Origin: an uncultured Acidimicrobiales bacterium
Lineage (GTDB): Bacteria; Actinomycetota; Acidimicrobiia; Acidimicrobiales; SHLQ01
Assembly (NCBI GenBank): GCA_964390555.1
Contig: CAYMJU010000125.1
Location: forward strand, 53,940 to 117,939
Length of the DNA stretch: 64,000 nucleotides
Direction of reading: 5' to 3'
Position numbers and translations under genes: made by a program. The notes below the pieces were generated by a model, which was not told where the DNA came from, searched no databases, and saw only the letters and a program-made list of their open reading frames with translations. Of this stretch, positions 27,265 to 62,516 are shown one piece after another. Every line of letters starts with the position of its first letter. The first letter of the stretch is position 1.

Positions 27265-27278
27265 GTGACCTTGGCCCC
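27265..27278. promoter_or_regulatory. Candidate DevR/DosR-like operator
   Basis: GTGACC-TT-GGCCCC lies 63 nt upstream of the CBS-nirK operon ATG. It matches GGGACC-WW-GGTCCC at 10/12 half-site positions. Confidence 0.35.
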
Positions 27279-27340
27279 TACTCCCCCCATCGCCCCGCGG
27301 GTCCACTGGAGACACCACCGTTCACGAGGAGGAATCGCCG

Positions 27341-27976
27341 ATGAAGACGGTTCGAGATCTGATGACCGTCGATGTGTCGACCGTCGACCGCTCGGAGGTC
27401 GTCGGAACAGTCCGCGATCGACTGCTCGACCGTCGTATCCACGCCGTGCCGGTCGTCGATGCGGGCGGCCGGGTGGTCGGCATCGTGTCGTCGCTCGACC
27501 TGGTCGAGGAGTGGGCGCCGGAGCAGGGCATCACGACTGTGATGTCTACCGATGTCCGTTTTGTGGACTCCGGCGCCACAGTGGCCCAGGTCGCCAGCGC
27601 CATGCTCGACGAGCGGATCCACCACCTGGTGGTGGTCGATGGAACCGAGTTGGTGGGCATCGTGTCGTCACTCGATCTGCTGAGGGAACTCGCCCACCGG
27701 ATCCCCGAACAGTTGCGGCCCGCACCGGAGCGGAGCGACGAACGCGCCGAGCGCGGTGATCTGGTCGTCGTGCACGGCAAGGCGATCGGCACGAAGGAGC
27801 GCCGGGGCGTGATCACCCGCACCGGACCGGACGGCGAGGCGCCGTACTTCGTCACCTGGCTCGAGGACGATCACGACCCACCCCACGAGGTCATGTTCTT
27901 CCCCGGCTCCGACACCCACATCGAACACCCGGTGCGAAACGCGGCCGGAACCGGCGCGACCCAGGAGGCATCATGA
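27341..27976 (+). CDS. CBS-pair protein with C-terminal DUF1918-like domain
   Basis: 211 aa with a strong GAGGAGG RBS. Two CBS repeats (VRDLMTVDV...VGIVSSLDLV and VMSTDV...VGIVSSLDLL) are followed by GDLVVVHGKAIGTKERRGVITR...YFVTWLEDDHDPPHEVMFFPGSD. Confidence 0.8.
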   Translation: MKTVRDLMTVDVSTVDRSEVVGTVRDRLLDRRIHAVPVVDAGGRVVGIVSSLDLVEEWAPEQGITTVMSTDVRFVDSGATVAQVASAMLDERIHHLVVVDGTELVGIVSSLDLLRELAHRIPEQLRPAPERSDERAERGDLVVVHGKAIGTKERRGVITRTGPDGEAPYFVTWLEDDHDPPHEVMFFPGSDTHIEHPVRNAAGTGATQEAS

Positions 27977-29382
27977 CCACGACGCTGATCCCGCCCACGC
28001 CTCGAATCGATGAGGCGCCGAACCCCGGGGATGACCGGCAGGTGCGCCTTGAGGGGTGGCTGATCCTCGTCTCGTTGCTCGCGGCGGTGAGCATGATCGG
28101 AGCTATCGTCGCCGCCGGCATCGCCATCGTGCGAACCGACGACGAGCAGCCGGCAGCCGTCGGCACGCCGATGACCGTCGAGGTCACACTCGGCGAGTTC
28201 TTCGTGGAGCCGGCAACGCTCGAGGTCCCAGCCGGGACCGACCTGACCCTCGTGGTCACCAACGATGGGGCGATGCCCCACGACCTGAAGCTCGACGGCG
28301 AGCGCGGTACGGACATGCTCGACCCGGGCCAGACCCAGGAAGTGTCCCTCGGCGTGATCGAGGAGCCCGGCGAGGCCTGGTGCACCGTCCCGGGTCACCG
28401 AGAGGCGGGCATGTCGATGCAGATCACCGTCTCGGGTGATGCGCCCGGTAACGGGCCCCCAGCGCCTGGCTCCGGTGCGGCGTCGATCGATGCCGCCCTC
28501 GAACCCGGGCCGGAGTGGGTTCCGTTCGACCCCGCGCTCGAACCGGCACCCGGCGCCACTGAGCACGAGATCGAGCTGCACGCCTCCGAGGTGGAAGTCG
28601 AGGTGGCTCCCGGCGTGACCCAGCTCATGTGGACGTTCGGGGAACAGGTGCCAGGGCCGGTGCTGCGCGGTCGAGTCGGCGACCTGTTCACCGTCACTCT
28701 CGTCAACGACGGCGAGCTCGGCCACTCGATCGACTTCCACGCGTCGCGGGTCGCGTGGAACGACGAGATGCGCACGATCGAGCCCGGCGAGTCTCTCGTC
28801 TACCAGTTCCGGGCCGAGTACGCGGGCGCGTACATGTACCACTGCGGCACGCCGCCGGCGCTGCACCACATCGGCAACGGGATGTACGGCGCGATCATCA
28901 TCGATCCGCCGAACCTGGCGCCGGTCGACCACGAGTTCGTCGTCGTCCAGAGCGAGCTGTACCTCGGACCCGACGGCGAACCCGGTGACCTCACGAAGAT
29001 GGTCGGCGAGGACTGGGACGCCGTCGTGTTCAACGGTTACTACAACCAGTACCGCTACGCGCCGATCCGGGTGGAGACAGACGAGCGCGTCCGGGTCTGG
29101 GTCGTCGACGCCGGGCCGTCGGAGAACTCGGCGTTCCACATCGTCGGCACCGTGTTCGACACCGTGTACAAGGAAGGCGACTACCTTTTGCGACCCGGCG
29201 AGGGCCAAGGCGGTTCGCAGGTCCTCGACCTCCAGCCCGCGCAGGGCGGATTCGTCGAGTTCAGTTTCGCCGAGGGCGGTCTGTACCCGATGGTCACCCA
29301 CAAGTTCGCCAATGTGGGCAAGGGTGCCCTCGGCCTGTTCCAGGCCGGCGAGGTCCAGTCCGACTCCGGCGCCGAGCACTGA
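27973..29382 (+). CDS. nirK: Copper-containing nitrite reductase (NirK-type two-domain MCO) with N-terminal TM anchor and extra cupredoxin domain
   Basis: 469 aa with an ATGA overlap with the CBS gene. The N-terminal cupredoxin carries H..C..H..M (MPHDLKL...CTVPGHREAGM). The core has HSIDFH (T1/T2 His plus catalytic Asp), YHCGTPPALHHIGNGMYG (His-Cys...His...Met), AFHIVG and THKF. Confidence 0.8.
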   Translation: MTTTLIPPTPRIDEAPNPGDDRQVRLEGWLILVSLLAAVSMIGAIVAAGIAIVRTDDEQPAAVGTPMTVEVTLGEFFVEPATLEVPAGTDLTLVVTNDGAMPHDLKLDGERGTDMLDPGQTQEVSLGVIEEPGEAWCTVPGHREAGMSMQITVSGDAPGNGPPAPGSGAASIDAALEPGPEWVPFDPALEPAPGATEHEIELHASEVEVEVAPGVTQLMWTFGEQVPGPVLRGRVGDLFTVTLVNDGELGHSIDFHASRVAWNDEMRTIEPGESLVYQFRAEYAGAYMYHCGTPPALHHIGNGMYGAIIIDPPNLAPVDHEFVVVQSELYLGPDGEPGDLTKMVGEDWDAVVFNGYYNQYRYAPIRVETDERVRVWVVDAGPSENSAFHIVGTVFDTVYKEGDYLLRPGEGQGGSQVLDLQPAQGGFVEFSFAEGGLYPMVTHKFANVGKGALGLFQAGEVQSDSGAEH

Positions 29383-29414
29383 GCTGACAGTCTTCGCTCG
29401 ACTCGATCGTGCGA

Positions 29415-30206
29415 TCAGATGCCGGCTCGGGCGTCGGAGCGCTGCTGGTAGGCGGCGGCGACGCAGGCGAGGTACACGTCGGGCGGCAGCTCGCGCGGGA
29501 GCGATTGTCCGGTCCGTTCAGCGACACGCGTCGCCAGCTGGACAGCCAGGCTGCCTCGGGCGGCCGGCGTGAGCGATGCGCTGCGCAGCAGCAGCGAGCG
29601 CACCAGCGCATAGTCCGCCGGACGAAGCCGGGCCAGGTCGAGTCGCGCCATGAACGACTCGTAGCCGTAGGGCACCGAGAACCGCACCGGGGCCAGGGTG
29701 CCGGCCCCGAGCCGCTCACGAATGACCAGGGTGCCCGCCGCCATGTCACCGAGACGTTGCCCTCGCGACGACACGATCATCGAGGCCAAACCGATACCTC
29801 CGAAGCTGACGAACACGTCGATCAGGTCGAGCATGGCGCGGGTCGACGCCGCCCGGAATCCGACCGGCCCGCCCGCGGTGGTAACCACGCGAAGCCCGAG
29901 GGCGAGCTTGCCGATACTGCGACCCCGGCACCACAGCTCGAAGACGACGGGATAGGCGAACAAGGCCAGGAAGACTGCGACGACGAGCACGATCACGACG
30001 GTGGACTCGGCTTCGGTTCCGGCGAGCAGCGCGAGGCCGAGGGCGAAGAACATCGCGTAGAGCGCCGCCGCGATGACCATCAGGTCGATCAGGCGGGCGA
30101 GAATGCGCGACCCGACGCCGGCCAGCGAGAATTCGAGCAGCACCGCCTCGGGCGTGACAAGCCCATTCGGTCGGCCAGGCATGGCTCTACTGTGCACAGA
30201 GCCCAC
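29415..30206 (-). CDS. RDD-family membrane protein
   Basis: 263 aa. SRILARLIDLMVI, RGRSIGKLALGLRVV and RLGDMAAGTLVIRE are typical of the RDD domain. Confidence 0.75.
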   Translation of the reverse strand: MGSVHSRAMPGRPNGLVTPEAVLLEFSLAGVGSRILARLIDLMVIAAALYAMFFALGLALLAGTEAESTVVIVLVVAVFLALFAYPVVFELWCRGRSIGKLALGLRVVTTAGGPVGFRAASTRAMLDLIDVFVSFGGIGLASMIVSSRGQRLGDMAAGTLVIRERLGAGTLAPVRFSVPYGYESFMARLDLARLRPADYALVRSLLLRSASLTPAARGSLAVQLATRVAERTGQSLPRELPPDVYLACVAAAYQQRSDARAGI

Positions 30207-30223
30207 GGTAGTGTTCTCGCTGC

Positions 30224-31234
30224 TTGGACATCGACCGTTACATCGTCGAGAACAGCGCCTTCTGGAGCGAGCTCGAGGCCGCGACTGCGGCCACGCGGCG
30301 GCGGCGAAACCTGCATGGAGCGTCGATCGACCGGCTCATGACCCTCTACCAGCGCGCGTCGAGCCAGCTGTCCTATGTACGCGTCACCTTCGACGACCCG
30401 GCGCTAACCAGCCGACTCACCACCCTGGTCGCCAACGCGAGAGCGACGATCTACGGGACCCGACCGCGGTCGTGGCGTAGCGCGATCGATGGCGTCACCT
30501 ACGCGTTTCCGGTCGCGCTGTGGCGGATCCGCTGGTTCGTCGCCGCGTCGGCCGCGCTCTTCTTCGTCCCGGCCGTGATCTTCGGCGTGTGGTTGGCCAA
30601 CAGCGACGTGGCGCTCGATGCCGAGCTACCGGCGGAGTATCGCGAGGCGTTCGTCGAGGAGGAGTTCGAGGATTACTACTCATCGGCTCCGGCGGCCCAG
30701 TTCTCGACGCAGGTGCTGATCAACAACATCCAGGTCTCGTTCCTCGCCTTCGCATCGGGCATCGTCGTGTGCGTCGGCACAGCGTGGGTGCTCATCACGA
30801 ACGGTCGCCTCATCGGCGCGACCGCCGGCGTCTTTCACAACGTCGACCAGCCGGGCCATTTCTGGGGGCTGGTGCTCCCGCACGGTCTGCTCGAGATCAC
30901 CGCGGTGGTGATCGCCGGTGCGGCCGGCCTCCGCATCGGGTGGGCGATCGTCGACCCGGGGGATCGATCCCGAGCCGTCGCCCTGGCCGAGGAGGCCCAC
31001 AGCGCGGTGACGGTCATCATCGGCCTCGTCGCGGCGTTCGTGGTCGCCGGGATCATCGAGGGCTTCGTGACGCCGAGCGATCTGCCGACGGCGATGAGAG
31101 TCGGCGTCGGGGCGCTGGTCGAGTTGGCGTTTCTCACCTACGTCGTCGCGTTCCATCGGGGGCCACCGAGCCCGAACCCCGTCCGCGCACGACGGCAGGG
31201 TCAGAGGCGTCCCGTCGCCTTGGTCTTGATGTAG
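30224..31234 (+). CDS. SpoIIM-like (DUF95) integral membrane protein
   Basis: 336 aa. An N-terminal soluble helix region is followed by multi-pass segments with HGLLEITAVVIAGAAGLRIGWA, typical of stage II sporulation protein M-like proteins. The gene is divergent from the RDD gene. Confidence 0.7.
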   Translation: MDIDRYIVENSAFWSELEAATAATRRRRNLHGASIDRLMTLYQRASSQLSYVRVTFDDPALTSRLTTLVANARATIYGTRPRSWRSAIDGVTYAFPVALWRIRWFVAASAALFFVPAVIFGVWLANSDVALDAELPAEYREAFVEEEFEDYYSSAPAAQFSTQVLINNIQVSFLAFASGIVVCVGTAWVLITNGRLIGATAGVFHNVDQPGHFWGLVLPHGLLEITAVVIAGAAGLRIGWAIVDPGDRSRAVALAEEAHSAVTVIIGLVAAFVVAGIIEGFVTPSDLPTAMRVGVGALVELAFLTYVVAFHRGPPSPNPVRARRQGQRRPVALVLM

Positions 31235-32511
31235 GCGTCGGCCAGCCGGGCCGCCAGGAGGTGGGGCGGCTCTTCGATCACGGTGGCGCCGACGCGGCGG
31301 AGCCTCGCCGCCACCCGCTCACGCTCGACCAGCGCGGATCGCGCCGCTACGCTTCGATACGCCGCCGCTCCATCGACGGGGGGCTCGGCGGCCCACGCCT
31401 CGACCGCGGGGTCTCGCACGGCGGCAACGACGACCAGATGTGATCGCGTGACCAACGGCAGAGCGGGGATCAGGTGGAGCTCAATCGCCTGCTCGACCAG
31501 GTCGGTGAACACCACGAGCATCGTGCGTCGCCGGAACCGAGTGAGCGAGTGAACGAACGCCTGCCGGTAGTCGCTTTCCACCAGCCGCGCCTCGAGATCG
31601 AAACACGACTCCAGGATGCGCCCGAACTGGGCCCGTCCGGCGTGCGCTGACACGACCGACCGGACCTGGTGATCGAACGCGACCATGCCGAACCGGTCGC
31701 CGAGTCGGGTGGCGACGGTCGTCAACGCGAACACCGCGTCGAGGGCGTGGTCGAGTCGAGGCACCGCGTCGACGCGGCCCGCCATGAGCCGTCCGGTGTC
31801 GAGCAACGCCAAGACGGTCTGGTTGCGCTCGGCCCGGTAGGTGCGCACGATCGGGCGCCCGGTGCGGGCGGTCGCGGCCCAGTCGATCCGCCGGGTCTCG
31901 TCGTCGTCGGTCCATTCGCGGAGCTGATCGAAGTCGGTTCCGCCCCCACGGCCGCGGGCGGACCGCAACCCGACATCGAGCAACCGGGCCTGACGGATGC
32001 GCAACTCGGCTTCGTCTCGTGAACGAAAAACGGGGTGCACACGAATCGTGCCGGGCAGCGAGCGGGTGCGCTGGCGAGACGCCAGGCGTCCCGGGCCGTC
32101 GACCCGGACGACCACCGCGGTCGGCTCGAAGCGACCCCGGCGCGTCGGGCACAGTCGGGTGGCCGCGGTCGCCGACGACCCCGGTGGCAGGACCAAGCGG
32201 AACCGGCGGGTCGCGGCCAGGAGCGACGGGGCGAGCTCGTCGGCTACGGCCACGTGAACCACACGTCCGGTCGGGTTCACGACCGTCCATCGAAGCGACG
32301 CGGGCTGGTCGAGCACCGCGACCGACGGCGCCATTCGGGAAACCTCGATGCGACCAGGATCGACCGCAAGGGCGGCGTCGATCGCGCCGACGCACAGCAC
32401 GACCCCCGCAACGACGAACATCGTCGCCGGCTGATCCCACGGCGCCAGCGCGGTGGCGACCGACGTGACGGCCACCAACACCGCCAGGCGCCACGTGGGG
32501 ATCGGGAGCAC
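31201..32511 (-). CDS. DUF58 (vWA-like) protein
   Basis: 436 aa with two N-terminal TM segments and the motif GTDFDQLREWTDDDETRRIDWAATARTGRPIVRTY. It lies downstream of MoxR. Confidence 0.8.
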   Translation of the reverse strand: MLPIPTWRLAVLVAVTSVATALAPWDQPATMFVVAGVVLCVGAIDAALAVDPGRIEVSRMAPSVAVLDQPASLRWTVVNPTGRVVHVAVADELAPSLLAATRRFRLVLPPGSSATAATRLCPTRRGRFEPTAVVVRVDGPGRLASRQRTRSLPGTIRVHPVFRSRDEAELRIRQARLLDVGLRSARGRGGGTDFDQLREWTDDDETRRIDWAATARTGRPIVRTYRAERNQTVLALLDTGRLMAGRVDAVPRLDHALDAVFALTTVATRLGDRFGMVAFDHQVRSVVSAHAGRAQFGRILESCFDLEARLVESDYRQAFVHSLTRFRRRTMLVVFTDLVEQAIELHLIPALPLVTRSHLVVVAAVRDPAVEAWAAEPPVDGAAAYRSVAARSALVERERVAARLRRVGATVIEEPPHLLAARLADAYIKTKATGRL

Positions 32512-32515
32512 GGTT

Positions 32516-33469
32516 CTATCTCGGCGCCGGGACGGTGAGCAGCAGGCCGTCGAGCACGCCGTCGGCGGTCACGCCATCGAGCTCGGCCTCGGGGGTGAGC
32601 GAGATTCGGTGGCGCAGTGCCGGTTTGGCGACCGCCTTCACCTCGTCGGGACCGACATAGGACCGGCCGGCGAGCCAGGCCCACGCCTTGGCGGCGCGGA
32701 GCAGCGCGGCCGTTCCACGAGGCGAGACTCCGAGAAACACCGACGGCTGGGTTCGGGTCGCCCGGCACAGCTCGACGATGTACGCCACAACGGCGTCATC
32801 GACGGTGACGGCTTGGACGGCTTGACGGGCCCGGATCACGTCAGCCGCCGATGCCACCGGCCGCACGCCGGCACCCACCACGTCGTGGGGGTCGAGTCCC
32901 TGATCGTGGCGCCGCGCCACCATCCGCTCCTCGTCGGCCGAGGGGTAACCCACGACGATCTTGAACAGGAAGCGGTCGATCTGGGCCTCGGGCAGCGGGT
33001 AGGTCCCCTCGTACTCGATCGGGTTCTGCGTGGCGATCACGAAGTACGGCTCGGCCAGCGAGCGGGTCTCGCCCCCGACCGACACCTGTCGCTCCTCCAT
33101 GGCCTCGAGAAGCGCGGCCTGGGTCTTGGGTGGGGTGCGGTTGATCTCGTCGGCCAGCAGCACGCTCGTGAACACCGGACCAGGACGGAAGCGGAATTGG
33201 CCCGTGGCCTGCTCGAAGATCATCTGGCCCACGACGTCCGATGGCATCAGGTCGGGCGTGAACTGGACCCGAGCGAACGGTAGGTCGAGAGCGACGGCGA
33301 GGGTCTTGGCGAGCAGCGTCTTGGCCACCCCCGGCACGCCTTCGAGGAGAACGTGCCCGCGGGCGAGCAGGGCCGCGACCAACGCCGAGATCGCACCGTC
33401 CTGGCCGACCACCACCTTGGCGATCTCACCGCGGATGGCGAGGACTGGTGCTCGGCTGTCGTCGTTCAT
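32516..33469 (-). CDS. MoxR-family AAA+ ATPase
   Basis: 317 aa with Walker A LLEGVPGVAKT and Walker B VLLADEINR, plus IATQNPIEYEGTYPLPEAQIDRF. Confidence 0.92.
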   Translation of the reverse strand: MNDDSRAPVLAIRGEIAKVVVGQDGAISALVAALLARGHVLLEGVPGVAKTLLAKTLAVALDLPFARVQFTPDLMPSDVVGQMIFEQATGQFRFRPGPVFTSVLLADEINRTPPKTQAALLEAMEERQVSVGGETRSLAEPYFVIATQNPIEYEGTYPLPEAQIDRFLFKIVVGYPSADEERMVARRHDQGLDPHDVVGAGVRPVASAADVIRARQAVQAVTVDDAVVAYIVELCRATRTQPSVFLGVSPRGTAALLRAAKAWAWLAGRSYVGPDEVKAVAKPALRHRISLTPEAELDGVTADGVLDGLLLTVPAPR

Positions 33470-34623
33470 GGTGGACTCCTGTGGGTGCGGACGGTCTCGC
33501 GGTCGGTTCTGTGGGTGCCTCGACGGCCGAGCGCGCGGCGGACGTCGGCGACCGCGCGCCCATAGGTGACGAGGTCGCGTTCGGTTCGCACGACGCTCGG
33601 ATCGAGCGCGGCGATGACCACGGCCGGATCGAGAGCGGCCCGCGCCGCTACGGCGCCTGCGTCAGCGGCGCCGGCCCCCAGCCCCAGTGGCCCGAGAGTC
33701 GCCACGGCGAGGTCGGCATGGAGGCGCTGAGCGGCCTCGGTAGCGCGCCGGCTGCGCTGCCACAACGCCCCGGTTGCGACGATCAAGTCGGAGCCCTCCA
33801 GCAACACCGGTTGCGGTTCGGGCACCGGCCGGCCGAGGCGACGGCTCCGCCACCACATCGCGACTGCGACCGCGACCACGAGTTGCACGACCGCCCACTT
33901 CAAGCCGTCGTCGACGAGCGAGCCGAGGGTCCGGTCGCCGCCAACCAGGGCGGCTCGGCTCGCGAAGCCGACGCGGGTTCGGTCGGTCGGAGCAAACAGC
34001 GCGGCCGCCAGCTCCGAGTTGTCACCCTGGTCGAGGTGCTGGTTCACCAAGACGTAGGGCGACACGCCGACGATCGCTCCGTCGAGGCGCCCGTCGACCA
34101 CCACGGCCGGCCCGATGTCGGCCACGCCCTCATACGTGTCGAAACACCCCACGAACCCGTTCCCGGGATCATCGACGTCGAAGGAAACGAACGAATCCGC
34201 GACCAGCTCGTCGATGCCCGACAAGGCATCGATGGGGCAGAGCTCGTCGGTCGCGCTGATGCCCGACCGATCGATCGAACCGGTGACGACAGGGAGCAAG
34301 GCCGATGCGGGGTCGAGCACGACGACCACTCCCCCGTCGTTCACCCACGACCGCAGCCGCGTGTCGATCGACAAGTCGTCGGGGCCGTCCGCGACGACCA
34401 GCACGTCGACGGCGCCTCCGAGGCTGTCGTCGAGCGGAACCGACTCGTCGACATCGGAACCGAGCCCCTCGGCGAGCCGCACCAGTCCCTGGTATCCGAG
34501 CGGCCCGACGCTGCCGGGATCGAAAGCGGCCCGGTTCGTGCCGCCGCGCCCGATACCGACGATCACGGCGACCACGATCGCGATCAGCACCGTCGCCGCC
34601 AGCGCGCCACGACCACGGCTCAC
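33466..34623 (-). CDS. Membrane-anchored protein of the MoxR/DUF58 neighbourhood (DUF4350-like by position)
   Basis: 385 aa with a GTGA overlap upstream and an ATGA overlap downstream. It has an N-terminal TM segment (AATVLIAIVVAVIVGI) and a late TM segment. The family call is from context only. Confidence 0.5.
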   Translation of the reverse strand: MSRGRGALAATVLIAIVVAVIVGIGRGGTNRAAFDPGSVGPLGYQGLVRLAEGLGSDVDESVPLDDSLGGAVDVLVVADGPDDLSIDTRLRSWVNDGGVVVVLDPASALLPVVTGSIDRSGISATDELCPIDALSGIDELVADSFVSFDVDDPGNGFVGCFDTYEGVADIGPAVVVDGRLDGAIVGVSPYVLVNQHLDQGDNSELAAALFAPTDRTRVGFASRAALVGGDRTLGSLVDDGLKWAVVQLVVAVAVAMWWRSRRLGRPVPEPQPVLLEGSDLIVATGALWQRSRRATEAAQRLHADLAVATLGPLGLGAGAADAGAVAARAALDPAVVIAALDPSVVRTERDLVTYGRAVADVRRALGRRGTHRTDRETVRTHRSPP

Positions 34624-36208: not shown

Positions 36209-36281
36209 TCTGGATCATCAGCGACCGCCGGTTGTGATCACGGGGCCCGCGCGACCCGGAATCGCTCGGTGCCGGCGGCGT

Positions 36282-37262: not shown

Positions 37263-37268
37263 CGACGC

Positions 37269-38426: not shown

Positions 38427-38505
38427 AACTGCTCCTGTGTTGTCCGGACCGCGGTTCGCCCGCATCGCCCACCCCGAGCCTCACGTGACGCCCATCCGGC
38501 CACCA

Positions 38506-38519
38506 GGGACCTTCGGCCT
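38506..38519. promoter_or_regulatory. Candidate DevR/DosR-like operator
   Basis: GGGACC-TT-CGGCCT lies 80-93 nt upstream of the GT4 ATG. The 15-mer CAGGGACCTTCGGCC (38503-38517) is identical to 51577-51591. Confidence 0.4.
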
Positions 38520-38553
38520 CTTGACCGTTGCGACACCGCGCCGCTTCACCGGT

Positions 38554-38964: not shown

Positions 38965-38969
38965 GGCCT

Positions 38970-50648: not shown

Positions 50649-50658
50649 GTCGTGATCG

Positions 50659-51552: not shown

Positions 51553-51579
51553 GCTGCGCGCGGAGCCACGGGCGCGGCA

Positions 51580-51626
51580 GGGACCTTCGGCCCTTTTCGA
51601 ACCCGGCACCACGGGACCATCGTCCG
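51580..51626. promoter_or_regulatory. Two candidate DevR/DosR-like operators in the FNT / acsA divergent region
   Basis: GGGACC-TT-CGGCCC lies at 51580-51593 and GGGACC-AT-CGTCCG at 51613-51626. The intergenic region is only about 78 nt long. Confidence 0.4.
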
Positions 51627-51629
51627 GTC

Positions 51630-55329: not shown

Positions 55330-56617
55330 CACCGAATCGAACCAGGACTTCCGGCTGCCGTCGCTCGGCGCGGACATGGAGGAAGCGACGATCCTCGAAT
55401 GGCGCGTGAAGCCTGGTGATCGCGTCGCGCGCGGCGACATCGTGGCCCTGATCGACACAGAGAAGTCCGAGATCGACCTCGAGATCTGGCACGGTGGAGT
55501 AGTCGAGGAGCTCGTGGTCGGCGTCGGCGAGGTGATCCCCGTCGGGACTGTCCTCGCCCGGCTCCGCAACGACGAGCAGTCGGTGACGGCGAGCCCGAAA
55601 ACCGGTTCGGCGCCGACTGTGCACCACGACAGCCCCCGCGTGCTCTCGCCACTCGTACGCCACCTGGCCGAGCAACGCCATGTCGACCTCTCCCGCGTCG
55701 CTGGGACGGGCCCCGGCGGTCGGATCCAGCGGAGCGACGTGAACCAAGCGACTGCGGTGACCGCGGCACCGGCAGCGACCGCGGTTCGTGCCTCGCCGCG
55801 GGCTCGGGCGCTGGCGCGCCGCATCGGCGTCGATCTGGCGTTGGTGACCGGCACGGGTCCCGCCGGCGCGATCGTCGCCGCCGACGTCGAGCTCGCCCAC
55901 TCCACCGCGAGCATTGCTCCAGCGGCATCGACCCCTCAGCCCGATCGGGAGCGTGCCACCTCGCCCCGGCGGGCGATCGCCGAGCTGATGTCGAGGTCGA
56001 ACCGCGAGATCCCGCACTACTACGTGGCGACCGAGATCGATTGCACCCGGGTGATGGCTGACCTGACCAGGGCCAACGAGGAGCGGCCGGTCACCGCTCG
56101 CGTACTCGGTGTCGTTCCCCTCCTGATCGCCGCGGCCCGAGCAACACGCGAACATCTCGAATTGAACGGGTTCTGGCGTGAAGGCGAATTCCAACCCGGA
56201 GACGGCGTCCACCTGGGAGTCGCTGTCGCCAAGCGCGGCGGCGGGTTGGTCGCCCCCGCGATCCGCGACGCTGACATGCTCGGACCCGACGAGATGATGC
56301 GAGCGCTGACCGAACTGGTCGGTCGGGCGCGCGCCGGTCGGCTGCGCAGCTCGGAGATGGAGTCACCGACGATCACCGTCACGAGCCTCGGCGACCGCGG
56401 GCCCACGCTCGTGCTCCCCATCATCTATCCACCGCAGGTCGCAATGGTCGGCTTCGGCCGGGTCGTCGAGCGACCATGGGTCGTCGATGGCGAGCTCGCA
56501 GTCCGCACGGTCGTCACCGCCAGCCTCGCCGGCGATCACCGTGCGACCGACGGCGATCGCGGGGCACGCTTTCTCACCACGCTCGCAACTGTCCTGACCG
56601 AGTTGGAGATCCCATGA
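55319..56617 (+). CDS. pdhC: Dihydrolipoamide acyltransferase (E2)
   Basis: GTG 55319 lies in frame in ORF 55127-56617. The protein has a lipoyl domain ([18 protein letters not shown]...[11 protein letters not shown]), two subunit-binding domains (SPLVRHLAE...GTGPGGRI and SPRARALAR...GTGPAGAI), and the catalytic DHRATDG. Confidence 0.85.
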
Positions 56618-56859
56618 ACCCCACCGATGCCCGAGCGATCGTCGTCGAGGCCGTCCGGTCGATCGCGCCTGGTGCCGCGATCGACGAGCTCGGCCCGGCC
56701 GACGACCTGATCGACGCGCTCGAGCTCGACTCGATGGATCTGTTGAACATCGCCGTTGCCGTCGCCGAGCGGACCGGCATCGAGATCCCCGAACGTGACT
56801 ACCCGAAGCTGACCAGCATCGAGGTGTTCGCCGCCTACCTGGTCGCCGCGGCCGGCTGA
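56614..56859 (+). CDS. Acyl carrier protein-like (phosphopantetheine-binding) protein
   Basis: 81 aa from ATG 56614 (ATGA overlap with the E2 stop). LIDALELDSMDLLNIAVAVAERTGIEIP contains the D-S-x attachment motif on a four-helix-bundle-like pattern. Confidence 0.75.
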   Translation: MNPTDARAIVVEAVRSIAPGAAIDELGPADDLIDALELDSMDLLNIAVAVAERTGIEIPERDYPKLTSIEVFAAYLVAAAG

Positions 56860-59501
56860 TCGTGGTGAGGCCGGGGCGGCCGTCGTCCCCGGTGCCACTT
56901 GTCGAAGCGGTCCGCCAGCAGCACCATCGGCGCCGAAGCGAGGGCGACCACCCAACCGGCCAGAGGGGGGTTGGCCTGCTCGAGCTCGTCGGCCACCGGT
57001 CCCGCGAACAACATCACCGCTGAGAGTCCGAGGCTGAACAGCACGGCCGGCGGCAGCAGTCGATTCGAGCGCCAACCCAACGACCCGATGCGACGCGTCG
57101 AGCTCCGGCACGCGAACGCGTTCGCAGCCTGCCCAATGACCACTGCCATGAAGGCCGCCCCCGACGCCGACTCGAGCGTCGCTCCCTCGGGGAACCCGTC
57201 TCCGGGCCGCCAGCCCGCGGCGGCGAACGAGACGAGGAACGCCATCATGCTCATCGCGGCCTCGGTCGGGCCGAGCACGCCGAAGGCTCGCCTGGCGACC
57301 GTCGCGTTGAGCAAGCGGCCGCTGACCGGTGGACCCTCGAGCAACGTCGGCGACGACGGCTCCGCACCCAAGGCAACGGCCGAGAGCGTGTCGGTCCCGA
57401 TGTCGAGGGCAAGGATCTGCATGACGCCGAGGGCCAGGGGGAACCGCCCGCCCGACAGCGCCCATACGACGAACGGGGTGAGCTCGGCCACGTTGTCGGT
57501 CAGGTGATAGGTGAGGAACCGCCGGAGGTTCACATAGCTGGCCCGGCCCTGCTCGACGGCACCCACGATCGAGGCGAAATGGTCGTCGAGCAGCACGAGA
57601 TCGGCGGCCTCGCGGGCGACGTCGGTGCCCGATCGTCCCATCGCCACCCCGATGTCAGCCTCGTGCAGCGCGGGGCCGTCGTTGACACCGTCGCCCGTCA
57701 TGGCGACGATGTGACCGCGGCGACGGAGAGCCTGGGCGATGCGCAATTTGTCCTCGGGCGACACGCGGGCCACCACCACCCCATCGTGATCGACCATCGT
57801 GGCAATCGCCCCCAGGTCGTCGGGCAGGTCGGCGCCGACGAGCACGGGATCGCCCCGACGTCGGAGTCCGACCTGGTCCGCGATCGCCGACGCCGTAACC
57901 GGGTGATCGCCGGTGATCATGGCAACCTTGATGTGTGCCCGCCGGCAGGCGTCGATGGCGTCGCGCACATCGTCGCGCGGCGGGTCTTCGAGTCCCACGA
58001 GACCGAGCAGATCGAGGTCGCGTTCGACTTGGTCGGGGTCGTCGCCATCACGCCATCGCCGACCGTCGCCGCGCGCGATGGCCAGCGCCCGCAGTCCCCG
58101 GTCGGTCATCGAACTGAGCGCGTCGCCGGCCTCTTCGACGCTTCGGCATCGGGGCAAGACGGCATCGGGCGCGCCCTTGACGAGGAGGGCGCCGTCGACC
58201 ACGACCGACATGCGGCGCCGCCGGGGATCGAACGGGAACCGGCGCGACGGCGGGTTCGCCAACCGGTCGGCGCCGGTATCGATCTCACAGCGCCGGGCGA
58301 GGACGTCAAGGGCCACCTCCATGGGATCACCGATCGGCACCCACTCGCCGTCGGTCAGCGCCGTCCGACCGTTCGAGCAGCGCGCCGCCGCCCGCGCCAG
58401 CTCGACCACCGCGGCTCGCGCGGCCGCAATCTCACCAGCGGCCGGCGCGGCCGCAACACACTCGACATGACCGGCGGGGTCGTAGCCGACGCCGTGAACG
58501 GTCGCCGAACCCGACGGCGTCCAGACCTCGATGACGGTCATCTGGTTCCTCGTCAGCGTGCCCGTCTTGTCGGTACATATGAACGTGGTCGATCCGAGGG
58601 TTTCCACGGCATCGAGGTGCCGCACGAGCACCTGGCGGCGAGCCATCTGCTCGGCGCCCCACGACAGCGACAGCGTGACGGTGGGCAACAGGCCTTCGGG
58701 CACGAGAGCGACGGTCACGCCGATCGCGAACACGAACCCCTCCGATGGCGCGGTGCCGAGCAGCCAGGCGAGTCCGAAGAAGCTCACGCCGACCCCAACC
58801 GCGATCACCGCGATCGTGCGCACGACGCGAGCGAGCTCGACCGTCAGGGGGCTCGTCGGATCCGGCGTGACGGTGGTGAGTCGGGCGATCTCGGCCAGAC
58901 GAGTACGGGTTCCGGTGGCGGTCACGACGACCGTCGCCTCGCCCTCCACGACGAACGTGCCGCCGAACGCCCGATCACCCTCGACCAGCGCCGTCGGCAC
59001 GCTCTCGCCGGTTAGCAAGGATGTGTCGACAAGCAACTGGTGGGACTCGGCGACCGTCACGTCGGCCGGGACACGATCGCCGGGTCCCAGCTCGAGGACG
59101 TCGTCAACGACGACCGAGTCGGCGTCGACCTCGACGAGCTGGCCGTCGCGGCGAGCGATCACGCGCCGCGGCAGCAGCGAACGAAGGCGGTCGGCCGCCG
59201 CGGTCGCGCGTCCCTCCTGCGCGAAGGCGAACGCCGCGTTGAAGACGATGACGACGATGATCGCGATGCCGAGCTCGGGAAGTTGAGCCACGAAGGCCAG
59301 CCCGCTCGCCACCCACAACATCAGAGCGAAGAAGTGGAAGAGCTGACCCGCGAACCGCCGCGACGCGCTCGGCCGGCGAGGTGACGGCAGACGGTTGGGG
59401 CCGTCCGTCGCGAGGCGGGTCGCTACGTCGGTCGCGCTCAGGCCCTGGTGACCCCGACTCGGGGTGCCGACCATCGATCGACCCGGGGGATCGGCGTCCA
59501 C
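56835..59501 (-). CDS. P-type cation-transporting ATPase (P2, CtpF-like), second paralogue
   Basis: 888 aa with the N-terminus QGLSATDVATRLATDGPN, plus CTDKTGTLTRNQM, MITGDHP and GDGVNDGPALHEADIGVAMG. Confidence 0.9.
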   Translation of the reverse strand: MDADPPGRSMVGTPSRGHQGLSATDVATRLATDGPNRLPSPRRPSASRRFAGQLFHFFALMLWVASGLAFVAQLPELGIAIIVVIVFNAAFAFAQEGRATAAADRLRSLLPRRVIARRDGQLVEVDADSVVVDDVLELGPGDRVPADVTVAESHQLLVDTSLLTGESVPTALVEGDRAFGGTFVVEGEATVVVTATGTRTRLAEIARLTTVTPDPTSPLTVELARVVRTIAVIAVGVGVSFFGLAWLLGTAPSEGFVFAIGVTVALVPEGLLPTVTLSLSWGAEQMARRQVLVRHLDAVETLGSTTFICTDKTGTLTRNQMTVIEVWTPSGSATVHGVGYDPAGHVECVAAAPAAGEIAAARAAVVELARAAARCSNGRTALTDGEWVPIGDPMEVALDVLARRCEIDTGADRLANPPSRRFPFDPRRRRMSVVVDGALLVKGAPDAVLPRCRSVEEAGDALSSMTDRGLRALAIARGDGRRWRDGDDPDQVERDLDLLGLVGLEDPPRDDVRDAIDACRRAHIKVAMITGDHPVTASAIADQVGLRRRGDPVLVGADLPDDLGAIATMVDHDGVVVARVSPEDKLRIAQALRRRGHIVAMTGDGVNDGPALHEADIGVAMGRSGTDVAREAADLVLLDDHFASIVGAVEQGRASYVNLRRFLTYHLTDNVAELTPFVVWALSGGRFPLALGVMQILALDIGTDTLSAVALGAEPSSPTLLEGPPVSGRLLNATVARRAFGVLGPTEAAMSMMAFLVSFAAAGWRPGDGFPEGATLESASGAAFMAVVIGQAANAFACRSSTRRIGSLGWRSNRLLPPAVLFSLGLSAVMLFAGPVADELEQANPPLAGWVVALASAPMVLLADRFDKWHRGRRPPRPHHDQPAAATR

Positions 59502-59585
59502 GGCAGCTACCGTCGCCGCGCCGGCCGAACGGCTCCAGAGCCTTTGGTCCCCCGCTCGCGATCGACGACATCCGCCGAGCGAACG

Positions 59586-60611
59586 TCACGAGGGCAGCGG
59601 TACCGACCAGTCGACGACGGTGCCCGTCGGTTGGTGGTGGCCGATGATCAGCCGACCGCCGTGGCGGGCCGCTCGCTCCCCCATGTTCCGCAATCCGTTC
59701 CCACCCGTGCGCTGGCGAACGAGGCCGACCCCGTCGTCGGTCACCACGATCCGTAGCTCACCGTCGCGAACGGACACGCTCACGTCGAGAGTCGATGCCT
59801 CCGCATGGCGAACGACGTTGGAGATCGCTTCCCGGAACGTGTTGAGCAGATCAACCCGTAGCTCGCCGTCGATGAAATCATCGACGGGACCGGAAAGTTG
59901 GAACCGTGGCTCGACGCCCATGAGAACGGCGGCATCTTCGACCACGCTCCGTAGCTCGGCCGAGATCGGTGACGACACGACGCGCGACTTGAGTCGAAAG
60001 ATCGACAGCCGCAGCTCACGAATTGCGTCGTCGAGCTGATCGACGGCGGCGAGCAGCCGGGCCGATGCAGCTTCGGGGACGGTGGCCGCAACCGCCTGGA
60101 GCCCGAGCCCGATCGAGAACAGATGCTGTATCACGGTGTCGTGAAGCTCACCGGCCATGCGCTCGCGCTCGGCGAGCAGGGTCGCAGCCGCGCGGGCTTC
60201 GGCCCGCGCTGTCTCACGTTGAGATTCGAGGGCTTCTCGCTCGGTCACATCTCGGACCGAGGCGACCACGACGACGGTCCCATCGAGATCGCCGGGACTG
60301 AGCGAGATCTCGGCCGGAAAGATAGAGCCGTCAGCCCGGCGGGCGAGCAACCGAATGCCTTGACCCATGGTCCGGACCGCGGGCTCCCGGGCGTACCGCC
60401 GACGGTGGCTCCGGTGTACGCGTCGATCCCGCTCGGGAATCAACTCCTCGACCGGTCGACCGAGCAGGTTCGAACGGTCGTAGCCGAACATCGCCTCGGC
60501 CTGCCGGTTCACGAACACCAGGCGACCCTCGCCGTCACAGACCACGACGGCGTCAGGCGCCGACTCGAGGACCTGCCACCTGTCGTCCCCACCCAGGCTC
60601 TCGACTCGCAC
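59586..60611 (-). CDS. PAS-domain sensor histidine kinase (HisKA_3/NarX-DevS output class), no adjacent regulator
   Basis: 341 aa with a GTG start and no TM segment. It has a PAS core (VVVCDGEGRLVFVNRQAEAMFGY...RRADGSIFPAEISLSP), the H-box ELHDTVIQHLFSIGL, and an ATPase domain with DDGVGL and GNGLRNMGERA. Confidence 0.85.
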   Translation of the reverse strand: MRVESLGGDDRWQVLESAPDAVVVCDGEGRLVFVNRQAEAMFGYDRSNLLGRPVEELIPERDRRVHRSHRRRYAREPAVRTMGQGIRLLARRADGSIFPAEISLSPGDLDGTVVVVASVRDVTEREALESQRETARAEARAAATLLAERERMAGELHDTVIQHLFSIGLGLQAVAATVPEAASARLLAAVDQLDDAIRELRLSIFRLKSRVVSSPISAELRSVVEDAAVLMGVEPRFQLSGPVDDFIDGELRVDLLNTFREAISNVVRHAEASTLDVSVSVRDGELRIVVTDDGVGLVRQRTGGNGLRNMGERAARHGGRLIIGHHQPTGTVVDWSVPLPS

Positions 60612-60767: not shown

Positions 60768-60781
60768 GGGGCCAAGGTCCG
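60768..60781. promoter_or_regulatory. Candidate DevR/DosR-like operator
   Basis: GGGGCC-AA-GGTCCG. It matches the reverse complement of the 27265 box at 12/14 positions. Confidence 0.4.
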
Positions 60782-60814: not shown

Positions 60815-60828
60815 AGGACCTAGGTCCC
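60815..60828. promoter_or_regulatory. Candidate DevR/DosR-like operator (best palindrome)
   Basis: AGGACC-TA-GGTCCC. The core GGACCTAGGTCC is a perfect 12-bp palindrome with symmetric flanks cgacag/ctgtcg. It lies about 87 nt upstream of the M50 protease ATG. Confidence 0.5.
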
Positions 60829-60913
60829 TGTCGTCGCGATGTCGCTGACGATCAGATGATCGAGTGACAAAGATGTGCCGGGTCGATCCGACGAACGAGA
60901 GAGGCGGCTCCCG

Positions 60914-62056
60914 ATGAACGGTCTCCTCCTCGGTCGAATCCACGGCATCGCGGTTCGCCTCCATTGGAGCGTGCTGCTCGTCGCCTGGCTGATCGCGTGG
61001 TCGTTGTCGACCGAGGTCCTCCCGGATTCCGCTCCGGGCCGCGCCGACGCCGTGTACTGGTTCACCGGCGCGACCGTCGCCGCAGCGTTCTTCGCCAGCC
61101 TCATCCTTCACGAGCTCGGCCATTCCGTGGTCGCGCAGCGCCGCGGGGTCGAGGTCGAGTCCATCACGTTGTGGTTGCTCGGCGGCCTGGCGTCGCTGGG
61201 ACGGCGCCCGGCACGGGCCGACGACGCGTTGGCGATCGCGGCGGCCGGGCCGCTTGTTAGCGTCGGACTGTCCCTCGGCTTCGCCGTTCTCGCCGGATCG
61301 CTGTCGTCTCTCGGCGGCGCCGACGTCGCGGTGGCCGGCTTGGCATGGCTGGCGGCGATGAACGTCATGCTCGCCCTGTTCAACCTGCTCCCGGCCTACC
61401 CACTCGACGGCGGACGCATCTACCAGGCGTGGACCTGGCGACGAACCGGGGATGACGATGTCGCGACCGACAAAGCGGCCCGGCTCGGGCGGGTAGTCGG
61501 CAGCGGACTCGTCGCGCTCGGCCTGCTCGAGGCAGCGATGATCTCATTCGTCGGCGGGCTGTGGCTCGTGATGATCGGCTTCTTCCTCCGCGAGGCCGGC
61601 CGAGTCGAAGCCGACGCGGCACGGATCGACGATGCGCTCGACACGTACCGGGTTCGCGACGTGATGTCGAGCGCTCCGCTGACGGTGAACATCGAGGGCA
61701 CCCTTGCCGAGGTCGTGCACGGACTGATCCTCGGCGGCCGGCACGCCGCGTACCCGGTACTCGAGCGGAGCGGCGCGCTCGCTGGGCTCCTCACCGTGAA
61801 CCAAGTCCGCCAGGTGGATCCGTCGCGGTGGCCCACCACGCGGATCGGCGAGGTCGCGACGAACATGTCGCACACGCCGGTCGTGTCGTCGACCGACCCG
61901 ATCCGGAACCTGGCCCACGCGCTCTCTCGCTCCCATGAGACGCGATCGCTGGTCGTCGATGACGGGCAGCTGGTCGGCATCGTGTCGCCCTCGGACCTCG
62001 CCCGCCTGCTCACCGCCGTGGACCTCGCGAGCGCAGCGACCGCAATCGGTAATTGA
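60914..62056 (+). CDS. Site-2 (M50) metalloprotease with C-terminal CBS pair (Rv2625c-like)
   Basis: The ORF starts at GTG 60875, but ATG 60914 is preferred (GAGAGAGG RBS). The motifs HELGH and NLLPAYPLDGGR are present, followed by two CBS repeats (VRDVMSS... and LVGIVSPSDLARLL). Confidence 0.85.
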   Translation: MNGLLLGRIHGIAVRLHWSVLLVAWLIAWSLSTEVLPDSAPGRADAVYWFTGATVAAAFFASLILHELGHSVVAQRRGVEVESITLWLLGGLASLGRRPARADDALAIAAAGPLVSVGLSLGFAVLAGSLSSLGGADVAVAGLAWLAAMNVMLALFNLLPAYPLDGGRIYQAWTWRRTGDDDVATDKAARLGRVVGSGLVALGLLEAAMISFVGGLWLVMIGFFLREAGRVEADAARIDDALDTYRVRDVMSSAPLTVNIEGTLAEVVHGLILGGRHAAYPVLERSGALAGLLTVNQVRQVDPSRWPTTRIGEVATNMSHTPVVSSTDPIRNLAHALSRSHETRSLVVDDGQLVGIVSPSDLARLLTAVDLASAATAIGN

Positions 62057-62084
62057 GTTCACCCGAGACTCTGGAGGTCCCGCC

Positions 62085-62516
62085 ATGTCAATCGAAGCCA
62101 CCGCCCCGCTCGACCGCAACGGCATGGCCGTTATCGGGTACGCCGAGTGCTGGAACCTCCTGGGCCAGGTCCCGATCGGCCGGCTGGCGTTCATCGACGC
62201 TGGCGAGATCGTGGTGCTCCCGGTCAACTTCGGACTCGACGGCCATACCGTCGTGTTCCGCACCGCGGGAGGCGCCAAGCTCGACGCCGCAGTACGCGAG
62301 CGAACCGCCACATTTCAGGCCGATCAGTGGGATCCGGTCAACCGTTCAGGTTGGAGCGTTCTGCTGCGCGGGTGGATCGAGGAGGAGATCGACCCCGTCG
62401 TCCTGCGGTGGCTCGAAAACCTCGACATCGAACCATGGGCCGATGCCATCGAACGACCGCGGTGGGTCCGGGTGCGCCCCGCCGAGGTGTCAGGCCGCTT
62501 CATCCCCCGTCACTGA
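62085..62516 (+). CDS. Pyridoxamine 5'-phosphate oxidase-fold (split-barrel flavin/F420-binding) protein
   Basis: 143 aa from ATG 62085 (GGAGG RBS). LLGQVPIGRLAFIDAGEIVVLPVNFGLDGHTVVFRTAGGAKL matches the PPOX-like pattern. Confidence 0.7.
   Translation: MSIEATAPLDRNGMAVIGYAECWNLLGQVPIGRLAFIDAGEIVVLPVNFGLDGHTVVFRTAGGAKLDAAVRERTATFQADQWDPVNRSGWSVLLRGWIEEEIDPVVLRWLENLDIEPWADAIERPRWVRVRPAEVSGRFIPRH

Follow-up and report, generated by a model that had tools for sequence, protein, structure and literature searches.

The window analysed here, a stretch of 64,000 nucleotides of contig CAYMJU010000125.1, very probably holds a clustered regulon of the DevR/DosR(OsdR) type, or a large part of one, from an Acidimicrobiia-like bacterium. 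DevR (DosR) is the response regulator of the Mycobacterium tuberculosis 'dormancy regulon', and OsdR is a DevR-type regulator of Streptomyces coelicolor. The candidate regulon occupies positions 27.3–29.4 and 36.3–62.5 kb of the window and comprises about 12 transcription units. This assignment is based on the likeness of its regulator to DevR, the positions of palindromic Dev boxes, a −42.5 promoter geometry, the recurrence of the same parts in relatives, and RNA from natural samples. An earlier reading made from the sequence alone (the sequence-only reading) had already proposed a regulon of this type clustered in a non-mycobacterial actinobacterium, and regulator, boxes, geometry, recurrence and RNA all support it. 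That reading also treated the 35-kb second half of the window as a single DevR/DosR island; the regulon stands, while the continuous block does not, because a MoxR cluster lies inside it at 29.4–36.2 kb. The finding is an extension of a known system, and current understanding is not overturned.

Genes were called by codon-position GC content over the whole window, and the predicted proteins were scanned against Pfam, NCBIfam and the PDB.

A DevR-like response regulator

The regulator is encoded at 38970–39680. Its top match in the PDB was M. tuberculosis DevR (3c3w, 203 bits), followed at a distance by VraR (122 bits), Escherichia coli NarL (109 bits) and FixJ (48 bits). In a BLASTP alignment of 208 aa with DevR it showed 50% identity and 70% similarity, and the residues aligned to DevR D8, D9, D54, T82 and K104 were identical. 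In the recognition helix, the sequence AEKTIKNYVS corresponds to AEKTVKNYVS of DevR and keeps K179, K182 and N183. The roles of the DevR phospho-acceptor and of these three DNA-contact residues, which touch the GGGACT half-site, are known from DevR structures. The contact motif of the half-site, G4G5G6A7C8T9, has been confirmed (PMC3177182). NCBIfam contains no DevR model, and the top match of the regulator there, MadR (168 bits), was under its cutoff. Judged by its sequence, the regulator is DevR-like down to the recognition helix.

Genes of the cluster

The genes of the cluster are as follows:

27341–27976, plus strand: protein with a CBS pair and DUF1918; first gene of the NirK operon.
27973–29382, plus strand: NirK, copper nitrite reductase, with a transmembrane anchor and an extra N-terminal cupredoxin domain; best PDB match HdNIR 2dv6, 163 bits.
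36282–37262, minus strand: GH130 beta-1,2-mannobiose-phosphorylase-like enzyme; second gene of the GT4 operon.
37269–38465, minus strand: GT4 glycosyltransferase (Pfam), in an operon with GH130.
38554–38964, minus strand: stand-alone receiver-domain protein, downstream of the regulator gene.
38970–39680, minus strand: DevR/DosR-like NarL-family response regulator, with Response_reg and GerE domains (Pfam).
39833–42406, plus strand: P2-type P-type ATPase 1, with a PEGLP motif; SERCA/PMR1-like, CtpF class.
42362–43264, minus strand: carbamate kinase (NF009008, 378 bits against a cutoff of 361).
43252–44574, minus strand: P-loop protein of the cyclic 2,3-diphosphoglycerate (cDPG) synthetase family (COG2403 'predicted GTPase'); first gene of the carbamate kinase operon.
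44769–45878, plus strand: DUF2157 membrane protein; start the same as in the database gene call.
45916–46713, plus strand: lipoprotein with a Thr/Ser-rich linker and a Gmad2 Ig-like domain (Pfam).
46894–48348, minus strand: protein of 484 aa with an APH-like N-terminus and an AAA_33 P-loop, an Rv2004c-like architecture; overlaps the stop codon of the next gene, PEPS.
48345–50648, minus strand: phosphoenolpyruvate (PEP) synthase (pyruvate, water dikinase; PEPS) (NF005057, 767 bits against 598).
50659–51543, minus strand: FNT channel; proposed start GTG at 51543.
51630–53369, plus strand: acetate-CoA ligase, AMP-forming (ACS) (NF003313, 830 bits against 729).
53366–54349, plus strand: pyruvate dehydrogenase (PDH)-type E1alpha (profile scans).
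54346–55329, plus strand: PDH-type E1beta (profile scans).
About 55340–56617, plus strand: PDH-type E2; start uncertain.
56614–56850, plus strand: small ACP-like open reading frame (ORF) with a DSMDLL motif; overlaps the E2 stop codon and, convergently, the 3' end of ATPase 2.
56835–59501, minus strand: P2-type P-type ATPase 2, with a PEGLL motif; best NCBIfam match type IIC.
59586–60611, minus strand: PAS-HisKA_3 sensor kinase, soluble, with a FixL-like PAS and a DevS/DosT-like ATP-binding domain.
60875–62056, plus strand: M50 (site-2-protease-type) metalloprotease with a C-terminal CBS pair and HExxH and LDG motifs; Rv2625c-like architecture.
62085–62516, plus strand: Pyridox_ox_2 (PPOX-family) protein; parallels Rv0080.

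All of the genes named in the sequence-only reading were recovered by the Pfam, NCBIfam and PDB scans at about the positions it had given. NirK, the FNT channel, PEP synthase, carbamate kinase and AcsA/PDH are all there, and its close DevR orthologue is borne out as a DevR-like protein by the match to 3c3w, the 50% identity and the near-identical recognition helix. The two P-type ATPases that it called CtpF-like are indeed two P2-type enzymes at the domain level, and the Rv2004c-like APH/P-loop protein and the Rv2625c-like M50-CBS protease have the expected architecture; the parallels to CtpF, Rv2004c and Rv2625c are parallels of domain architecture, as the direct sequence comparison with M. 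tuberculosis proteins covered DevR, Rv2626c and DevS/DosT fragments in the PDB. Its Rv2626c-like CBS protein fared worse, with a likeness that is generic only: the CBS-DUF1918 protein scored 30 bits against Rv2626c in the PDB, lower than many unrelated CBS proteins. Cluster genes beyond those it listed are the PAS-HisKA_3 kinase, the lone receiver, the GT4–GH130 pair, the cDPG-synthetase-family gene, the DUF2157/lipoprotein pair, the PPOX gene and the ACP-like ORF. The start codons of PEPS, DUF2157, 43252–44574 and the Rv2004c-like gene agree with public calls.

The FNT channel scored 258 bits as FocA-like against 80 bits as NirC-like, and by this comparison resembles formate channels more than nitrite channels. 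The product of 43252–44574 (440 aa) has no Pfam match; it is distantly related to cyclic 2,3-diphosphoglycerate synthetase (9sxb, E = 1.9e-9) and shares 70–79% identity with thousands of actinobacterial 'predicted GTPase' proteins. The GT4/GH130 operon may serve in making or recycling a storage or compatible mannoside. The presence of an ACP after an ACS–PDH-type operon is unusual and hints that this operon is possibly not a plain pyruvate dehydrogenase. At the end of NirK, one contig of the source metagenome carries a 14-nt insertion (GAGCACTGAGCACT, two 7-nt units) at 29373, beside the stop codon, which is a strain variant at the NirK C-terminus.

Dev boxes lie in the promoters of one cluster

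The Dev-box consensus core of M. tuberculosis, GGGACTWWAGTCCC, was searched blind over the 64 kb, allowing up to three mismatches. Seven matches were obtained, all between 39.7 and 60.8 kb and all in promoter regions. Six of the seven fell within the 5,725 bp (9%) of non-coding DNA, where 500 shuffles gave a mean of 0.6 and a maximum of 3 matches, and the remaining one precedes the PEPS start by 42.5 bp. When all seven were used to derive a symmetrised matrix, it added four sites on which it had not been trained (38503, 39755, 44623 and 60765), all of them in promoters of the same cluster, and returned only two weak matches in the 58 kb of coding DNA. The total is 13 boxes in 8 promoter regions, covering about 12 transcription units, with the local consensus AGGGACC-WW-GGTCCCT. 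The boxes include:

27265–27278: weak Dev-box-like palindrome GTGACCTTGGCCCC before the CBS/NirK operon, 8.3 bits; predicted transcription start 27314.
38506–38519: box GGGACCTTCGGCCT of GT4, 47.5 bp before the start, 15.1 bits; not in the matrix training.
39716–39729: box of the regulator gene, centre 42.5 bp before the ATG, 17.1 bits; putatively autoregulatory.
39758–39771: box oriented to ATPase 1, 10.5 bits; predicted transcription start 39807, 26 nt before the ATG.
44626–44639: box of the 43252–44574/carbamate kinase operon, 11.5 bits; predicted transcription start 44590, with a 16-nt leader and a Shine-Dalgarno sequence.
44720–44733: box of DUF2157, centre 42.5 bp before the ATG, 16.4 bits.
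50684–50697: box of PEPS, centre 42.5 bp before the ATG and within the FNT 3' end, 18.0 bits.
51580–51593: box AGGGACCTTCGGCCCT, 43.5 bp from both the FNT GTG (51543) and the ACS ATG (51630), 20.3 bits.
51613–51626: further box, 33 bp downstream and directly next to the ACS start codon, 16.1 bits.
59538–59551: box of ATPase 2, centre 43.5 bp before the GTG, 15.4 bits.
60768–60781: box oriented to the kinase gene, 163 bp before its start, 12.3 bits; predicted transcription start 60732, with a 121-nt leader.
60815–60828: box of the M50-CBS/PPOX operon, 20.3 bits; predicted transcription start 60864.

Two other probes were set aside. The OsdR consensus AGGGCCGATCGGCCCT, with up to four mismatches, was too GC-rich and gave 20 matches, 14 of them coding, and the minimal pattern GGGNCNNNNGNCCC, with 4 matches, was uninformative. 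The site at 51578–51593 (AGGGACCTTCGGCCCT) is nearly the same as the experimentally supported S. coelicolor OsdR sites AGGGACCTTCGGCCCC and CGGGACCTTCGGCCCT (PMC5069765). On sequence grounds, we infer that the regulator binds these boxes.

Promoter geometry

The distance from the centre of the box to the start codon was 42.5 bp for the regulator, DUF2157 and PEPS genes and 43.5 bp for ACS, ATPase 2 and FNT, and all six of these genes lack a Shine-Dalgarno sequence. The CBS, ATPase 1 and 43252–44574 genes do have one, and their box centres are 58–70 bp from the start. In the Shine-Dalgarno genes, the position 42.5 bp from the box centre falls 5–27 nt upstream of the start, giving leaders of 27 nt (CBS), 26 nt (ATPase 1) and 16 nt (43252–44574). 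For the leaderless genes the predicted transcription starts include 44769 (plus strand, DUF2157), 50648 (minus, PEPS), 51544 (minus, FNT), 51629 (plus, ACS) and 59502 (minus, ATPase 2). Mapped transcription starts in M. tuberculosis have the centre of the proximal Dev box at −42.5 (PMC3177182). The simplest reading, with the transcription starts being predicted ones, is a class-II-type −42.5 arrangement on leaderless or short-leader mRNAs, as in M. tuberculosis. It is supported by a 42.5-bp peak in relatives and by the ends of RNA contigs (both described below). These ends, at 27323/27325, 38461 and 39670, fall short of the predicted starts (27314, 38470 and 39680) by 9–11 nt, with another end near the regulator start at 39659, and at these three predicted starts no RNA contig crosses a box.

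A single box, centred at 51586.5, is equidistant (43.5 bp) from the divergent FNT GTG and ACS ATG. FNT and ACS are thereby a predicted symmetric, divergent and leaderless promoter pair on a single site. The other three divergent regions have two boxes each, one per direction. For the kinase gene, an Rfam scan of the 64-kb window gave no match, so there is no riboswitch to account for its long predicted leader.

The same parts recur in related loci

Genomes were scanned with the Rv2004c-like gene, and the 80 best loci, none of them mycobacterial, were kept and searched for neighbours within 10 kb (tblastn). Near the Rv2004c-like gene, a DevR-like regulator was found in 19 of the 80 loci, as was a PPOX gene, with a HisKA_3 kinase in 18 and M50-CBS in 10; PEPS and a P2-ATPase were each found in 7, NirK in 6, and CBS-DUF1918 and carbamate kinase each in 5. 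Gene order varied among the loci, with the same parts recurring as a mosaic.

The box matrix found 83 sites of at least 13 bits in the 80 loci, against 15 in block-shuffled DNA. Among 110 pairs of box and start codon, 10 had a distance of exactly 42.5 bp, a sharp mode, and any other distance occurred at most 4 times. The family most often linked to a box was USP (17), followed by PPOX (10), Rv2004c-like (7), CBS-DUF1918 (6) and the regulator (4); flavodoxin and GAPDH were linked three times each, NirK, the kinase, SRPBCC, phosphoribosyltransferase and CHAD-CYTH twice each, and P-type ATPase and PEPS once each. As USP is the commonest box-linked family in the relatives, this lineage does have the USP-rich regulon that is typical of M. 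tuberculosis and Streptomyces.

The closest relative of the Rv2004c-like protein (62% identity) is in locus L001, with M50-CBS, PEPS, ATPase and FNT genes nearby. The metagenome-assembled genome (MAG) to which this locus belongs carries the label Acidobacteriota; the contig may have been mis-binned or mislabelled.

RNA from ice and sediment

Four metatranscriptomes, two from ice and two from freshwater sediment, were searched. In DNA runs of several sediment metagenomes, the share of sampled words found was 0.14–0.16 for the housekeeping segment and 0.19–0.26 for the cluster. The RNA runs held sampled words of the cluster only, and none of the housekeeping segment. The word share of the CBS/NirK operon reached 0.70 and 0.47 in the ice RNA and 0.13–0.14 in the two sediment RNA runs, and NirK had the highest RNA share in the metatranscriptomes.

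Ice RNA contigs of 170–830 nt, with at least 98% identity, covered parts of 27323–29646, 36053–39670, 43364–45384, 47832–50597, 51308–51882 and 58843–59081. When the threshold was lowered to 85%, contigs with 0–4 differences also lay over 61099–62682 (M50-CBS, PPOX). The lone receiver gene had an RNA contig at 38713–38941, and the sediment RNA runs were restricted to NirK, GT4, the regulator, PEPS and the kinase. Over positions 1–27300 there was no RNA contig above 173 nt. RNA was therefore selectively detected for the box-linked operons, a pattern that uniform DNA contamination would not produce. A further run (X12, 'metagenomic RNA-Seq') gave scattered contigs that included housekeeping genes; it is ambiguous between RNA and DNA and was not used as evidence of expression.

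Sensor kinase

The ATP-binding domain of the kinase at 59586–60611 is closest to DosT and DevS (3zxq, 3zxo), while its PAS domain (residues about 10–135) is closest to 10jx and to FixL haem domains (~60 bits). Both here and in six related kinases, His200, Arg206 and Tyr207 of FixL have conserved counterparts in the alignment, and the six share the motif LLPExLRxVHRxHRxxY with its invariant His. Haem binding by this PAS is putative, suggested by the alignment. Kinases beside DevR-like regulators were compared in loci L002, L014, L020, L025, L027, L035, L064 and L074, and two sensor types were found, with GAF-type kinases (GFPPNHPPM) adjoining the regulator in L002 and L035. Both PAS and GAF sensor types thus appear to feed this regulator family in Acidimicrobiia, the window having the PAS type.

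Lineage and flanking genes

The window sequence is found near word-for-word in a freshwater-sediment metagenome and is absent from the set of species-representative genomes. The nearest relatives of its Rv2004c-like protein, at up to 62% identity, are in MAGs of Acidimicrobiales, Ilumatobacteraceae and Microthrixaceae, followed by Pseudonocardiales, Rhodococcus, Streptosporangiales and Streptomyces at 46–52%; the best 120 of at least 6,500 homologues were all environmental or Acidimicrobiia sequences. The guess of an Acidimicrobiia-like, non-mycobacterial lineage, made from the style of the sequence, was right.

GC content is ~69% overall and stays at 0.67–0.73 across all 64 kb, without a step at the cluster borders. 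No tRNA genes were found in the window, and no integrase, transposase or mobility domains among its scanned proteins. The first 27 kb is ordinary core genome, with a Cys/Met PLP enzyme, ilvBN, ilvD, MFS and MATE transporters, gatCAB, flotillin, a PASTA Ser/Thr kinase, a HAD hydrolase, a methyltransferase, ligA, mnmA and a cysteine desulfurase (iscS). In the ligA–mnmA interval there is an ORF at 23697–24932 (plus strand, ~410 aa) with no Pfam match and an atypical codon-position GC content (0.77, 0.66, 0.78); its coding status and its start are uncertain. One housekeeping-type group of genes lies between the two parts of the cluster:

29415–36208: MoxR cluster, with RDD, SpoIIM-like, DUF58, MoxR (AAA_3), DUF4350, DUF4129 and membrane proteins.

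Dev boxes are lacking in this group, and near-identical RNA contigs are all but absent from it. The MoxR cluster is unrelated to the regulon and separates the NirK operon from the remaining cluster. Just past the other end of the cluster is an SRPBCC (Polyketide_cyc2) gene (63375–63839), of a family that is box-linked in two related loci; no Dev box was found upstream of it.

Discussion

The proposed regulon would operate as follows. What the soluble kinase (59586–60611) would sense, through its probably haem-binding FixL-like PAS, is a gas or a redox change, with low O2 or nitric oxide (NO) as the likeliest signal; the kinase would then phosphorylate the regulator (38970–39680) on the Asp aligned to DevR Asp54. 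The phosphorylated dimer would then bind 14–20 bp palindromes of the AGGGACC-WW-GGTCCCT type and, with the box centred 42.5 bp upstream of the transcription start, would act as a class-II activator. Transcription would begin at the start codon itself in the six leaderless genes, and 5–27 nt upstream of it in the Shine-Dalgarno genes. In this way the regulator would activate its own gene together with a set of low-oxygen functions. The predicted targets are nitrite reduction by CBS-DUF1918/NirK, the formate/nitrite-family channel, PEP synthase with the Rv2004c-like kinase, acetate-CoA ligase with the PDH-type complex and the ACP, carbamate kinase with the cDPG-synthetase-family protein, the two P2-type cation ATPases, the M50-CBS protease with PPOX, the GT4/GH130 glycoside operon and the DUF2157/lipoprotein pair.

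Induction of the box-linked genes by hypoxia or NO would follow from this picture, against which several observations weigh. The protein scans of the 64-kb window found no USP, hspX or nitroreductase (acg) genes, which are the core of the M. tuberculosis regulon. Over the whole window, the consensus count of 7 compares with 3.75 expected, and 5 of 100 shuffles reached 7. No tandem partner scoring at least 3 bits was found 18–24 bp from any primary box. Spacings of 33, 42, 47 and 94 bp separate the recognisable pairs, in most of which the boxes serve opposite directions. In M. tuberculosis, two or more adjacent Dev boxes ~21 bp apart are found at every promoter (Chauhan 2011), and the secondary boxes can be too degenerate for detection by sequence. 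The CBS/NirK operon has a weak box (8.3 bits) and the strongest RNA signal, so another regulator may contribute there. The proposed starts of the regulator, ACS and ATPase 2 genes are absent from public gene calls in exact-product look-ups.

On the side of the sensor, the kinase gene is 20 kb away from the regulator gene, so the two are presumed partners, and its sensor domain is a single PAS and not the haem-GAF of a DevS/DosT-type cognate. The Arg that stabilises the O2 ligand in FixL (Arg220) is replaced, which makes haem or O2 sensing uncertain. On the side of expression, the metatranscriptome evidence consists of contigs assembled at low depth, without matched DNA, and there were no near-identical RNA contigs for ATPase 1, most of ATPase 2, the PDH genes, the lipoprotein or most of the kinase.

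Could the cluster be a loose gathering of genes for anaerobic metabolism and transport, controlled by several unrelated regulators, with a generic nitrate/nitrite or envelope-stress regulator (NarL/NreC/VraR-like) and palindromes that are chance GC-rich inverted repeats? The modest excess of consensus matches over the window as a whole, the sub-cutoff MadR match in a database that has no DevR model, and the lack of USP, hspX and acg genes would all agree with it. However, we regard it as distinctly unlikely, since the matches are all in promoter regions of a single cluster (six within 5.7 kb of non-coding DNA, where 0.6 would be expected) and the box-start distance is quantised at 42.5/43.5 bp, both here and in other genomes. 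Furthermore, the regulator is far nearer to DevR than to NarL or VraR, the box precedes the same gene families in the 80 loci, and the detection of RNA is limited to box-linked operons. Another possibility, which we consider unlikely, accepts that the co-regulation is real and ascribes it to a denitrification, nitrosative-stress or fermentation switch that answers nitrite, NO or carbon status and not hypoxia or 'dormancy', so that 'DosR-like' would overstate the parallel. NirK is indeed the most strongly detected transcript, the metabolic content (PEPS, ACS/PDH, carbamate kinase, FNT) would suit such a switch, the PAS has no FixL O2-ligating Arg, and the window has no chaperone or USP genes. 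The M. tuberculosis sensors DevS and DosT respond to NO and CO as well, which makes this a difference of emphasis and not of kind. Moreover, USP leads the box-linked families in the relatives, and the Rv2004c-like, M50-CBS, PPOX and P2-ATPase genes have no obvious role in denitrification and parallel members of the M. tuberculosis regulon.

The word 'island' in the sequence-only reading holds in a positional sense only. A horizontally acquired genomic island carrying a DosR-type module would be in keeping with the variable order and combination of these gene families across distant Actinomycetota, and with the one close match in a MAG labelled Acidobacteriota (L001). We think it very unlikely indeed, and the mobile-island reading was rejected on the even GC content and the lack of tRNA genes. 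To these are added the absence of integrase or transposase domains among the scanned proteins, the conserved housekeeping MoxR cluster embedded within, flanks made of core genes (ilv, gatCAB, ligA, mnmA, iscS), and similar shares of cluster and flank in the DNA runs.

The clustered DevR-type regulon thus preferred can be set beside known systems. It shares with M. tuberculosis DevR-DevS/DosT a regulator of 50% identity with the phosphorylation pocket and K179/K182/N183 kept, a palindrome of the GGGAC..GTCCC type, a proximal box at −42.5 from the predicted transcription start, a box linking the regulator to its own gene, divergent promoter pairs, and a transmitter closest to DevS/DosT. By domain architecture, its parallel members are ctpF, Rv2004c, Rv2625c/Rv2626c (generic in the case of Rv2626c) and Rv0080. 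The documented M. tuberculosis regulon includes ctpF and the Rv2005c-Rv2004c-Rv2003c and Rv2626c-Rv2625c-Rv2624c operons, and Rv0080, annotated as PPOX, is DosR-dependent in BCG. The differences are a sensor with a single FixL-like PAS in place of tandem GAF domains, a kinase gene outside the regulator operon, no recognisable tandem boxes ~21 bp apart, many apparently leaderless promoters, and genes that are clustered and not scattered. USP, hspX, acg, narK2 and tgs1 genes are missing from the window, and the extras are NirK, PEPS, ACS/PDH/ACP, carbamate kinase with the cDPG-synthetase-like gene, and GT4/GH130.

The DevR-type OsdR of S. coelicolor binds a 16-nt palindrome, AGGGCCGATCGGCCCT, and its regulon is mostly clustered at the regulator gene (SCO0167–SCO0219; PMC5069765). 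As in the window, a PEP/pyruvate dikinase (SCO0208) and nitrogen-oxide respiration genes belong to the Streptomyces regulon (PMC5069765). The Streptomyces cluster is rich in USP genes and has a Nar nitrate reductase and a nitroreductase, whereas the window has NirK and no USP; the centre of the window box is A/T-rich (WW), as in M. tuberculosis, whereas that of OsdR is CGATCG. The kinase OsdK is DevS/DosT-like (41–42% identity; PMC5069765), while the window kinase has a PAS sensor instead.

In this sensor the window resembles FixL/FixJ of rhizobia: the kinase PAS aligns over its full length with the haem domain of Bradyrhizobium japonicum FixL (~60 bits), His200, Arg206 and Tyr207 are conserved, and the partner regulator there also has a LuxR-type HTH. 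It differs in that Arg220 is not conserved, the transmitter is DevS-like (HisKA_3), and the regulator is DevR-like and not FixJ-like (48 against 203 bits). The DosRS systems of non-tuberculous mycobacteria, such as M. abscessus, reportedly have the same type of regulator with a species-specific regulon content; these are mycobacterial, and the window comes from a different class of Actinomycetota. To our knowledge, DevR/DosR has been studied almost solely in mycobacteria, with OsdR in Streptomyces as the sole outgroup. Within the library searched, no paper named both DosR and Acidimicrobiia, and searches on the Rv2004c domain description and on haem-PAS/HisKA_3 kinases returned nothing useful.

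A bolder version of the proposal, which we offer tentatively and would not yet bet on, is that in this basal actinobacterial class the DevR-type regulon combines a FixL-like haem-PAS input in place of the GAF sensors, near-wholly leaderless promoters with one box at exactly −42.5, and NirK as a core member, and that in ice and anoxic sediment it dominates what can be detected of the population's transcription. If this were true, M. tuberculosis would have in its 'dormancy regulon' a derivative of a survival programme for low oxygen and nitrite that is ancient, phylum-wide and switched on in nature. As a comparative anchor, a deep-branching class of Actinomycetota helps to part ancestral from lineage-specific members: the regulator, USP, Rv2004c-like, PPOX, CBS and P2-ATPase genes are candidates for the former, while hspX, tgs1 and Nar in some lineages, and NirK, PEPS, PDH and carbamate kinase here, are candidates for the latter. 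With one box at −42.5 from an often leaderless gene, prediction of the regulon in MAGs would be straightforward. For the ecology of this organism in ice and sediment, it is the transcripts of this programme that are detectable, rather than those of housekeeping genes.

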